Source: Podarcis gaigeae
Taxonomy: Eukaryota
Assembly (NCBI GenBank): GCA_964106915.2
Contig: OZ066914.1
Reading direction: 5' to 3' (one strand)
Length of the DNA: 64,000 bases
Numbering within the stretch: position 1 is the stretch's first letter; each line of letters begins with the position of its first letter. Made by a program: the position numbers and the translations under genes. Below the pieces are notes generated by a model. The model was given only the letters and a program-made list of their open reading frames with translations, did not search any database and was not told the DNA's origin. Below are positions 5,340 through 59,139 of this stretch, in pieces.

Positions 5340-5900
5340 CTGCTCTCCGGAGCGGCATTCTGCAGCAGGCGCGCACCAGGGGCGGGGCCTCTATAATCCT
5401 CGCGGGCCTCCGGGAGCCTTGCAGGAGCCCGTCGCTGGCGGCGTCGGCGGGCCCCGAGTTCCTAAAGTTCCCATGGCCGCGGCGGCGGCGCAGCGAGGGG
5501 CCCCCGGAGCATCAGCCGCCTTCGCCGCCTCTTCGCGCTGCTTTAGCCGCCGCCGCTTCTTCCGCTTTGTTGTGCTGCTGCTGCCGGGCTGGCTCTAGTT
5601 GGCGCTCCTTGTCGGGCTGCGGCAGGGCCGCCGCCACCGCCGCCTCGCATGTGCTTGGGGAGGGCCGGCCAGGCGGCGGGGTGGGAAGGTGGCACACTTG
5701 CCGCGGGGAGGGGAGCCACTCAGGCGCGGCGGCGGCGGCGGCTCCTCGAGGGGACGCGCGGAGGGGGCTCTGGCGGCCACCGCCGTGTGCAAGAACTGCT
5801 GGTTCCGCGACCGGGGCCTATCGACTCCCCGCGCCGCCCTGAAGGAACTGCTTAGGATCGGGGCTGTCAAATCCAGCCCATCTGCTGCAATCATAATCAG
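5340..5900 (-). other. Putative first exon (mostly 5' UTR) of a minus-strand gene; 5' boundary approximate
   Basis: Consensus donor CAG|GTAAGA on the minus strand (last exon base 5340). GGC-rich UTR-like sequence. Sequence to the left appears A-rich on plus (T-rich on minus), as expected for an intron. An ATG at 5358 would give MPLRRA plus 1 nt before the donor. Gene not recognised. Confidence 0.6.
5391..5474 (-). other. Upstream ORF, 27 aa (MGTLGTRGPPTPPATGSCKAPGGPRGL*), in strong Kozak context
   Basis: GGCCATGG at 5474; TAG at 5393-5391, inside the putative first exon. Confidence 0.45.
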
Positions 5901-46972: not shown

Positions 46973-47097
46973 CAGTGCTTTTTTCCTTAAAAAAATGTTT
47001 AGGGGTACTCTCATTTTCCTACTCATACTGAAATACTGTCCCTCAAAGACGCCAAGCCTAGATTCACAAAATGTTTAGGGGTATGTGTACCCCTGCA
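46973..47097. mobile_element. hAT MITE lacking its right TIR; paralog of 59547-59905
   Basis: CAGTGCTTTTT...TTTAGGGGTACTCTCATT...ATTCACAAAATGTTTAGGGGTATGTGTACCCCTGC shared with the 59.5-kb copy. Confidence 0.8.
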
Positions 47098-47258
47098 GGA
47101 TCCTTATAATAAAGCTATTACATACAATCATGGCATGTTATAACAGAATAACAGGCAGGGGAGGATGCTTGTATAGTCATGCCAAGTTTGTTAAGGCTGT
47201 TCCCACAAGCTTTTCTATTTAGTAGAATCATTATATATATATATATATTCAGTTAATC

Positions 47259-48725
47259 CAGTGTTTCCCAACCGGTGTGCCGCGGCACACTAGTGTGCCG
47301 CCGGACGTTGCCTAGTGTGCCGTGGGAGGGAGGCGGGCGAGTCGGGCTAATCCTCCGATGAGCTCCACCTCCAGACCCATTGCTCAAATCCTTTAACCCA
47401 GGAGGGCGGGGAGAAAGGGTGGGAAAAAAGAAGGGGAAGAGAAAATATTTTTTTTAAAAAAGGAAAGAGAGGGAAAAAAGCGAGGGATGGAGGAAGGGGA
47501 ATAAACAGAAGGGGAGGACAATGAAGAGGGGCGGGGCTTGGCAGGCAGCAGATAACTGGGGAGGGGGCGCGGCTGGCGGCGGCTCAAGGCAGGAAGGGAG
47601 GAGCTGCCTCGCGGAGAGTCTTGGGCTGCAGAGATTTCCCGTTCAGGAGCGCGGGAGGCCACGCCGTGGATGGGAATCTCCTCCTCCTCTTCCTCCTCCT
47701 CCTCCAGGAGAGAGGGTGGTCCGCCCCACCGAGTCGGGCGTGCTCAAGCGTGGGAGCCTATAGTTAGAGCTCAGCTCCTTTTCTTGCCTTCCCCGCCCCC
47801 CCCCACGGAGCACATTTTCCTCGCCCCCCCAACCCCCGCATGTAGAATAGAAGCCCTCCAGCCTCCACGGTGCACAAACTCTCCCCTCTGCAACGAAGCG
47901 CTTTGTTGCATATCTTTGGTGAGGTTTTTAGGCAGTCTTGGTGCACCTTAAATCAGCGCTAATTGCGCCTGGACGCAGTATTTACTTCCGAGTAGGCCCC
48001 CTCCCCCCCCCCGGTAGCACCTGACGTTGCTATTCGTATCATCAGGTTTGTTTGTTGATAATTTAATTGTTTTAAAAGCATCATGCTAAAGAGCTCTCTC
48101 CCACCCCCAGACCCTTGGGCAAAACAGAAACACACACACATACACAAACACAGAGATTGAGCCCTGCAGGTTTTATGAAATGAATGGATTCTGAATGCCT
48201 GTTTCAGTGGCTTGTCCGCCTTAGGCTGCTGGGCCAGACACCTGTTACACGGTGCAGTCCGTAAGCTGTGAGCGCTGCTACCTGCCGCCGAGACCACGTA
48301 ACGACAGTCTTGAAAGACCTACATTGGCTCCCAGTACCTTTCCGAGCACAATTCAAAGTGTTGGTGCTGACCTTTAAAGCCCTAAGCGGTTTCGGTCCAG
48401 TATACCTGAAGTAGCGTCTCCGCCACCATCGTTCAGCCCAGACACTGAGATCCAGTGCCAAGGGCCTTCTGGCAATTCCCTCACTGTGAAAAGTGAGGTT
48501 ACAGGGAACCAGGCAGAGGGCCTTCTCAGTAGTGGCGCCCGCCCTGTGGAATGCCCTCCCATCAGACATCAAAGAGATAACCATTACCTTCTATGCTGTT
48601 ACTATTTTTTTATTTTTTTTTACATAAGTAAAAAGTGACCTTTCCCCATCTGGCATGGTGGTGTGCCTCGAGATTTTTTTCATGAAACAAGTGTGCCTTT
48701 GCCCAAAAAAGGTTGGGAAACACTG
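47259..48725. mobile_element. Non-autonomous hAT DNA transposon (1467 bp) carrying captured CpG-rich and L2 sequence
   Basis: Perfect 15-bp TIR CAGTGTTTCCCAACC / GGTTGGGAAACACTG; perfect 8-bp TSD AGTTAATC (47251-47258, 48726-48733); GTGTGCC subterminal repeats at both ends; no transposase ORF. Confidence 0.92.
48282..48581 (+). mobile_element. L2 ORF2 3' fragment inside the hAT element
   Basis: Translates as ...DHVTTVLKDLHWLPVPFRAQFKVLVLTFKAL... (typical L2 C-terminus); highly similar to the 61455-61972 copy; no 3' tail. Confidence 0.88.
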
Positions 48726-48733
48726 AGTTAATC

Positions 48734-57190: not shown

Positions 57191-58275
57191 GTTGCGTGTG
57201 TGTGAACACACGAGAATAGAAATGATCTCAAATAAATAAATATTTTGCTACAATAGGTAAGTAGATTAGGTAGCTCCTATTTCTGCTATATTTTGTACTT
57301 AAGTACATATTTTTATTTTTATTTTTATTTTTATTTTAATGTACGTGTACCATGAAAATTGTGATCTGCAACCTACCATTTTCTCCTTTAAAAATACATG
57401 GAGGTGTAGTTTTCCCCCAAGTGGCTGCTTCACGGATTTTGAAGGAAAGTGTCAATTTACACAAAACATGTACCCTTCACAAATAACACTGTGTGCTTGT
57501 ATTTTGTACTCTGATTATATCTGTTCCCAAGTACAAAAGATCATGTGAGAAGGTCCCCTGAGGCACTACTTTGCAAAGTACTTGGGATATCGGAAACCCG
57601 TCCTTGATTTATTTCAACAATCTTCTTCTGACACAAACAGGGTAAGCGGAGGGGTGTTATGAGAAGGTATTTTAATTTGTGTGATAAATTGTTAGACTCC
57701 ATTAGGTTTAATGAGTATCATCAGTGTATTCTTAGAATAGTTTTAAAAATCCTATCAAAGACTGATATAATCAAATTAAGCAAATTAATAGCAAGAATCC
57801 TGTGTATCTGCAGGATATAAGGGACTTAATAAAAGCCTACTGTAAAAGTTATATTTTTGTTTCTTGTTGCTTTAATGATGTGGACTAAACTGCTACTTCC
57901 CCCCAGTTTCCACTATTTGAACAGACTGGAAAGCCCTAGTTTTGGCCTAGAATCAGCCTTGACTGATGAGTTTCTCTAGCGTACAGATGGGGGAGTACAA
58001 CCCTCCCAGCAGGAACCCTTAGTGACTTTTGATGCCATTGACCATGGTCTTTTCTCGGATCATCTATATGAGTTGGGGTTTGAAGCCATTGCTCTACAGT
58101 GGTTTGGCTCCTGTTTGTATGTCAGGTCTCAGAGGATAGCTCTGTGAGACTATGTGTCTACACCCTGGCAACTTAGCTGTGGGGAACTGCAAGGCTCTTT
58201 AGCTCCAGTGCTTTTTAACATCTATAGGAAGCCTTTGGGGCAGTTATCAGGAGGCTTGAGATCCTATTTCTCCAT

Positions 58276-59139
58276 CGTCAGGGGACCGCCATCGGAACAG
58301 GGAAGGGAAGCAGAGGGGCAGTTGGGTTACATGGAACCTCCGAAAATCTTGCGAAGCAGTTCCTCTTCCTGTAGTGGGGAAAGCCACACCTCCAGTGGGG
58401 AAGAGGGGGAGGGACCAGAGGATGCTGCTGGGAGCTTCAGCACTGCTCCTGGCCAAGCCGGCCAGGAGGGAAGCACGCCTCTTCTGTCACCCACCCTGTG
58501 CAGAGGGGTAAAATGCAAAGAAGGAAAAGGCTGGGAGCTTCAGCACTGCTCCTGGCCAAGCCGGCCAGGAGGGAAGCACGCCTCTTCTGTCACCCACCCT
58601 GCGCAGAGGGGTAAAATGCAAAGAAGGAAAAGGCTGGGAGCTTCAGCACTGCTCCTGGCCAAGCCAGCCAGGAGGGAAGCACGCCTCTTCTGTCACCCAC
58701 CCTGCGCAGAGGGGTAAAATGCAAAGAAGGAAAAGGCTGGGAGCTTCAGCACTGCTCCTGGCCAAGCCGGCCAGGAGGGAAGCACGCCTCTTCTGTCACC
58801 CACCCTGCGCAGAGGGGTAAAATGCAAAGAAGGAAAAGGCTGGGAGCTTCAGCACTGCTCCTGGCCAAGCCGGCCAGGAGGGAAGCACGCCTCTTCTGTC
58901 ACCCACCCTGCGCAGAGGGGTAAAATGCAAAGAAGGAAAAGGCTGGGGGTGACTAAGCTATTATGTTGGGGGAGGACCCGGAAACGACCATTCCCGGATT
59001 CTGCTAGCGATTGAGGCAGACATGAACTTGTGGTTCTGCACTTGTAAATAGTTTTGCACCAAAATAAAACCTGTAAAAGACAGGGCGGAGTCCTGACTGG
59101 TTACCGGTACTCACGAGCAACCACCATTGCCATCTGACA
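58276..59139 (+). mobile_element. Solo LTR inserted in the L2
   Basis: Termini (C)GTCAG...CTGACA; TSD TCCAT / TGCAT (4 of 5 match); AATAAA near 59063; L2 homology resumes directly after it. Confidence 0.8.
58427..58947. repeat. Minisatellite: 5 x 103-bp units plus terminal GCTGGG
   Basis: Units start at 58427, 58530, 58633, 58736 and 58839; I see only two substitutions among the copies. Confidence 0.97.

Follow-up and report, generated by a model that had tools for sequence, protein, structure and literature searches.

In the stretch of Podarcis gaigeae DNA analysed here (64,000 nucleotides, referred to as the window), we characterized a non-autonomous transposon of 1,467 bp located at 47259-48725. 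It is most probably a Buster-type hAT element that copied CpG-rich DNA from upstream of a phostensin-family gene by template-switch repair and then spread to 20 sites in the genome. How cut-and-paste transposons acquire host DNA is still debated, and multicopy cases in animals were considered very rare. In this one genome we observed at least 11 families of cargo on one set of ends, six of them traced to their donors, with differing capture ages.

Structure of the element and origin of its cargo

The initial annotation of this DNA had described perfect 15-bp TIRs and a perfect 8-bp TSD, and both were read directly in the window (Table 1). The GTGTGCC repeats, said there to be limited to the outer ~70 bp, are found at 47275, 47293, 47315, 48661 and 48691, with one reverse copy at 47284, all six within 70 bp of an element end. 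As also described, there is no transposase between the ends, and a GC box (near 47528), a purine tract, (CCT)n and a GTGAGG motif (near 47919) are all present. The last of these had been presented as donor-like; it is antisense to the donor gene described below, and we therefore ruled it out as the splice donor of that gene.

Table 1. Features of the transposon and of its target site, in window coordinates
Feature	Position	Strand	Remarks
Left 8-bp TSD, AGTTAATC, TA at positions 4-5	47251..47258	.	read directly
Left TIR, 15 bp, perfect	47259..47273	+	
Left end derived from the parent hAT, with GTGTGCC subterminal repeats	47259..47346	+	~95% to sibling ends
Main cargo, copy of G000:C2:110,019,494-110,020,764	47347..48583	-	60 substitutions/1194 ungapped columns
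Single-copy part of the cargo, CpG-rich over its first 670 bp; putative promoter	47347..48283	-	GC 0.58, o/e 0.56
High-copy LINE fragment, already at the donor, where it extends beyond the breakpoint	48284..48583	+	
Second templated fill from G000:C2:105,799,280-105,799,366	48578..48657	+	sequence match
Right end, 71 bp; same sequence as the corresponding end of the transposase-coding copy L209	48655..48725	+	
Right TIR, 15 bp, perfect	48711..48725	-	
Right TSD, AGTTAATC	48726..48733	.	read directly

CpG islands are recognized by a GC content of at least 0.55-0.60 and a CpG o/e of at least 0.65 over 300-400 bp. By this measure, the region 47330-48020, which had been called CpG-rich, holds up in its best 400-bp window (GC>=0.60 and o/e>=0.65) but is a weak island overall, with GC 0.58 and CpG o/e 0.56 for 47347-48020. 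The element had also been placed ~41 kb upstream of a gene promoter; this is plausible, but nothing links the insertion to the gene. In the CpG island of the window at ~5-6 kb, a donor-like site is found on the minus strand near 5340, and there is a second GC-rich kilobase at 58000-59000. A short cargo-less relative of an older hAT-like family, described below, lies at ~46973-47095, ~160 bp to the left of the element; we looked for its right end and did not find it.

The interior of the element is host DNA. The main cargo, whose LINE fragment we take to be L2-like, is ~95% identical to a single reverse-oriented block of the same genome, which matches element positions 89-1325. No TIR is present at this donor, where the CpG-rich DNA as well as the L2-like fragment run on beyond the breakpoints. 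When the unique 937 bp were used as query, the donor was the sole non-element source among 29/29 candidates scored, the six other matches being 30-52 bp of (CCT)n. A TE consensus as origin of the interior was thus ruled out, since its unique 937 bp have one non-element match in the genome, and no match to the autonomous partner was observed beyond the ends. Insertion of the L2 after capture was also ruled out, because the L2 is colinear with the cargo at the donor; the L2 piece and the promoter-like DNA were copied as one colinear block.

Relative to the first ATG of a phostensin-family gene, the donor segment is situated 2.6-3.8 kb upstream; the sense strand of this gene corresponds to the minus strand of the window. 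The gene has two CpG-rich blocks, and the cargo spans the upstream part of the first one. A long frame, which begins 2.6 kb past the end of the cargo, matches the Pfam families Phostensin_N (E=2e-21) and Phostensin (E=2e-19), and we take it to be PPP1R18 rather than taperin. A long exon of the carboxylesterase/cholinesterase family (L031:5961-7457, at G000:C2 ~110.006 Mb; Pfam COesterase, E=4e-147) is found 12 kb upstream of the donor.

The junctions between these pieces are short overlaps. The left end and the main cargo share 1 bp (C at 47347), and the second fill shares 6 bp (5/6 match) with the main cargo and 3 bp with the right end, giving a junction microhomology of 1-6 bp across the element. 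The source of the second fill (80 bp) is an AT-rich, TIR-less locus situated 4.2 Mb away from the main donor on the same contig; the fill is absent from the 58 kb around the main donor.

We then counted the copies of the element in its own genome (1.51 Gb). The search gave 21 full copies with 96-100% identity, one shortened copy, many 300-bp matches to the LINE part and one 86% match of the interior alone, which is the donor. Each of the full copies has its own 8-bp TSD, and 20/21 were scored as TIR-bounded with a perfect TSD; copy L019 has short deletions in its left end and still a perfect TSD. The flanks of L012 and L014 are identical, leaving 20 independent insertion sites, and L014 was left out of the divergence counts for this reason. 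Over 19 copies, the mean pairwise difference is 0.5%. Pack-TIRs are defined by host DNA between TIR ends with a parental copy unlinked to a TE, and, for multicopy cases, by several copies remote from the parent, each with its own TSD; here we observed both. These results bear out the initial annotation, which had read the element as a young, non-autonomous hAT amplified after the capture of host DNA, and had proposed a search for many copies with different TSDs and for single-copy TIR-less donor loci.

A transposase-coding partner and a family of sibling cargos

Some of the elements with these ends code for a transposase. Among 12 transposase-bearing loci, one of which is the broken query itself, five (L209, L211, L213, L217 and L218) have an intact open frame of 626 aa, and these five frames differ by 10-22 of 1881 bp (~1%). 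The cargo element and L209 share an identical right end (Table 1). L103 (G000:C1:69.49 Mb) is a deleted transposase copy with a 1.7-kb insertion resembling the reversed 5' part of a LINE.

Pfam and PDB searches of the transposase gave no match at E<=0.001, apart from weak zinc-finger and DUF4371 matches. Names given to its full-length relatives are ZBED5-like, SCAND3-like and 'Transposase', and PF05699, presumably the hAT dimerisation domain, is present in some of these proteins; we take the ZBED5-like and SCAND3-like proteins to be Buster-derived, and we presume that a catalytic motif can be read in the transposase sequence. The closest named relative is an uncharacterized Podarcis muralis protein (96%). 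Relatives at 85-94%, over part or full length, are present in frogs, newt, garter snake and spider, which suggests horizontal transfer; fish are also among the hosts of the ZBED5-like or SCAND3-like relatives. A perfect 8-bp TSD borders 111/119 complete elements, with T at position 4 in 110/111 and A at position 5 in 109/111, and nnnTAnnn is the TSD consensus given for TcBuster in the accessible text of PMC3499496. From this TSD and the names of the relatives, the element is likely a non-autonomous hAT of Buster type.

The exact 32-bp left-end pattern occurs 377 times in the genome (control, 0). Our census took the first 100 left ends in genome order and classified 98 of them, leaving out L186 and a second left end inside L182; six members were assigned by comparison with separate family searches. 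Unique host-type cargo was found in 39/98 sampled elements, distributed over 11 families, while GC-rich tandem repeats fill 49/98 and deletion derivatives of the parent make up 10/98. Scaling 39/98 to 377 gives an estimate of ~150 cargo-bearing copies. The reading of a young family in the initial annotation was right as to capture, but it did not recognize that at least 11 sibling families bear cargo, the element being one of them.

Six of the 11 cargo families were traced, taken as they turned up, and TIR-less donors were found for all of them (6/6); families 4 (CENP-W), 11, 12, 16 and 17 and the tandem-repeat interiors were left out of donor tracing. The traced families have 20 (+L019), 24, 23, 21, 10 and 6 TIR-bounded copies, with cargos of ~0.7-1.3 kb. 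Three further donors were identified. The UBE2G1 donor includes the first coding exon with its splice donor (N-terminal residues 15/15), the RANBP9 donor includes exon 1 (E=2e-39), and the third is a doublecortin-domain gene (DCX, E=2e-15), presumably DCLK2. The sibling family of L111/L158 carries a CENP-W-like start, with a PDB match at E=2e-4 over 21 aa; a Pfam search of this start gave no match.

Some sibling cargos are mosaics of three or four donors. The RANBP9 family (L127/L122; donors L322, L323, L324 and L375) is a 21-copy mosaic of four loci joined by short overlaps, two of which are 4.2 Mb apart on one contig, and its last CpG-rich piece is common to a 994-bp family. In the UBE2G1 family, a piece of 212 bp is inverted and comes from a position 1.2 kb away. 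In a sibling of 1,374 bp, the fill of the window element (70 bp) and the first 10 bp of its cargo are retained around a different CpG island, which suggests serial cargo replacement.

Other members have more complex interiors. The 1,607-bp family (L107, L204, L334) has a mosaic cargo with repeated returns to the left region of the parent; it includes a coding fragment that we take to resemble a CDK5 activator, and a Pfam search of this fragment (family 11) gave nothing relevant. The elements L064, L112, L113, L137 and their relatives have GC-rich tandem repeats with a unit of ~120 bp. Several tandem-repeat members end in a motif that we take to be like the end of another DNA transposon, which suggests that these interiors were captured from another TE. 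In L182 and in the L111/L158 family, short pieces of the element ends are duplicated on either side of the cargo; L182 has a second left end inside, and the CENP-W family starts with a mini-element. This suggests that some captures may have arisen beside an inserted mini-element.

CpG-island donors, fate of the copies and capture mechanism

The main donor segments passed both the loose and the strict CpG-island test in 8/8 cases, against a background of 4/135 (strict) and 16/135 (loose) for flank kilobases and 1/61 and 3/61 for tiles of the window. A ninth donor segment is CpG-rich in 500-bp bins, and two short secondary fills fail the test. In the copies themselves, all 11 cargo types pass it, and the cargos of L182 and L199, each sampled once, are likewise CpG-island-like.

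We also observed an older hAT-like family, with TIRs starting CAGTGCTTTTTTC, which carries the gene starts of UBE2G1 (L240, L241, L336-L350) and of a DCLK-like gene (L268-L271). Both ends with an 8-bp TSD (0-3 mismatches) were found at 8/17 UBE2G1 loci and 2/4 DCLK-like loci. The breakpoints differ from those of the young families and CpG decay is heavy. The two families would have captured these two donors independently, a recurrence that tends to favour targeting of open chromatin during repair.

We tentatively propose that the family may be a vertebrate equivalent of Pack-MULEs, i.e. a hAT with intact transposase frames that captures mainly the CpG-island starts of genes, its repair being drawn to open promoter chromatin and to hot-spot loci. 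If this is true, the genome holds ~150 mobile copies of gene starts, together with a capture system that could be reproduced in cells. A competing explanation, which we find possible if somewhat doubtful, is that capture is random with respect to CpG islands and that only GC- or CpG-rich interiors transpose well, so that the bias would come from selection on elements. The tandem repeats, with a GC of 0.69-0.72 and no likeness to host promoters, favour such a better mobility of GC-rich elements, and since they occupy 49 of the 98 sampled elements, GC richness may reflect selection on elements rather than targeting. The left region of the parent is itself GC-rich, and the two short secondary fills are not CpG-rich, as this explanation would have it; however, the single-occurrence cargos are also CpG-island-like, plain deletion derivatives of ordinary GC exist, and an older family with different TIRs took two of the same donors. 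In any case, selection on elements addresses the cause of the bias and not the capture.

The age of the captures was considered from the distances. In the window family, the cargo-donor distance is 5% and the copy-copy distance 0.5%, so the capture would be ~10x older than the burst that produced the present copies; alternatively, the element would come from a sister lineage. The changes in the L2 part, 14 on the cargo side and 12 on the donor side with 2 unclear, lead to the same two readings, a capture far older than the burst or an origin in a sister lineage. We regard it as unlikely that the pack elements arose in a sister lineage of lizards, entered this genome by hybridisation or transfer and then burst. 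Across the traced families the cargo-donor distances, 2.7-9.4%, do exceed the copy-copy distance, and the 85-94% relatives of the transposase indicate that the family appears to cross species. Nevertheless, the distances vary by family, as expected for captures made at different times in one lineage, and the serial swapping of cargo implies a long-lived local lineage.

We next considered the fate of the cargo. Over 19 copies, transitions affect 19/122 CpG bases, 4/666 other C/G and 9/678 A/T; the difference between CpG and other C/G is significant in the pooled copies (Fisher p=6e-13). For the unique cargo alone, the figures are 16/76 and 4/438, whereas the L2 part has zero CpG transitions at 24 CpG bases, and 8/19 copies have no CpG transition at all. 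CpG-biased transitions are the spectrum expected of germ-line methylation, and their dominance in the copies suggests that these are methylated in the germ line and decay. Most of the donor CpGs are still kept in young copies, 38/48 in the window family and 62/71 in the UBE2G1 family. In the former the CpG losses are symmetric between cargo and donor (6 and 6), which tempers the methylation reading; in the latter they are not (8 and 0). In the old captured UBE2G1 copies, 163/548 donor CpGs are retained and 318 became TG/CA.

It had been proposed in the initial annotation that the element distributes ready-made CpG islands; in a working sense, the transition counts (19/122 vs 4/666) and the retention of 163/548 leave this unsupported so far. 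The copies would then serve as unmethylated, mobile CpG-island promoters and rewire genes in their vicinity, as the promoters captured by bat Helitrons do (PMC4778049, accessible text), and this we consider improbable. The bat precedent, the retention of most CpGs in young copies and the several sibling cargos that include a start codon together with its 5' region and a splice donor (UBE2G1) are consistent with it. Yet the transitions in the unique cargo argue against unmethylated copies, the old captured copies have lost most of their CpGs to TG/CA, a CpG-island-like flank is found within 1.4 kb of 2/20 copies only, and the window cargo is a marginal island (o/e 0.56). Most copies are likely passengers rather than working promoters, and individual copies could still be active. 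The family also illustrates the likely fate of moved CpG islands, i.e. methylation and decay, and moved copies of gene starts can be mis-annotated as genes or promoters.

Our preferred reading of the origin, capture by template-switch repair, would proceed as follows. The element would be broken, and repair synthesis would start in one of its ends, switch onto a host template in open CpG-island chromatin, sometimes switch again to a nearby template, and finally rejoin the other element end by gap-fill or by a FoSTeST-type capture. The intact transposase of the family would then amplify the product in trans, to 20 sites for the window element; the cargo would be replaced serially in the element lineage, and copies at new sites would be methylated in the germ line and then decay. 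We infer the capture step from the junctions, and not from an intermediate. This account matches both models of Tan et al. 2021, gap-fill and FoSTeST (PMC8277862, accessible text), and does not discriminate between them. That the donor was bracketed by two transposon ends which mobilized the intervening DNA, by end bypass or composite transposition, is very improbable, even if such a route is known for other DNA transposons (PMC8277862, same text), as there is no TIR within ~1.5 kb of any donor tested, the donors are intact, and the cargos join pieces that are inverted or come from loci megabases apart.

Comparison with known capture systems

The kind of capture is already known; what appears to be new, for a cut-and-paste family of a vertebrate, is its scale, the bias towards promoters and the repeated use of donors. 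Our literature search, with subscription journals mostly outside its reach, returned no description of lizard Pack-hATs, and repeat databases may list these families as plain hAT-N consensus sequences. The mosaics, the swaps and the intact transposase frames make both the capture mechanism and the CpG-island bias testable.

With the Buster hATs TcBuster and SPIN, as presented in the accessible text of PMC3499496, the element shares the 8-bp nnnTAnnn TSD and short TIRs. The names ZBED5-like and SCAND3-like among the close relatives of its transposase would also fit this group. Captures of host DNA by TIR elements were surveyed in 100 animal genomes by Tan et al. 2021 (PMC8277862); in the accessible text of that survey, four multicopy Pack-TIRs are reported, with a tendency to be GC-rich and a median cargo of 224 bp, and its one lizard (anoCar2) has 0 Pack-TIRs and 0 annotated hATs. 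The closest likeness is to Pack-hAT-N8_XT of Xenopus tropicalis, which has three copies with a 291-bp piece of 5' UTR; another frog case has five copies (PMC8277862, same text). Like our element, Pack-hAT-N8_XT combines hAT ends, a host 5' fragment, distinct TSDs and a distant TIR-less donor with a GC-rich cargo and template-switch junctions. Compared with the cases of this survey, the lizard has six families of 6-24 copies each with cargos of ~0.7-1.3 kb, and differs further in its mosaic cargos, their serial exchange and a partner whose transposase frames are intact.

In plants, GC-biased Pack-MULEs are known in rice (PMC5861414) and Pack-hATs in maize (PMC8903248), as far as the accessible text of these papers goes; the lizard case, in contrast, is a Buster-type element of a vertebrate, with CpG-island promoters. 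In bats, Helitrons such as HelibatN3/NUBPL captured promoters, with 15 genes, 4,690 copies and demonstrated transcripts according to the accessible text of PMC4778049. Both they and the lizard elements are vertebrate DNA transposons that amplify promoter and first-exon fragments of many genes. However, the bat Helitrons move by a rolling circle and capture by end bypass, whereas the lizard element is a cut-and-paste hAT whose interior was replaced.
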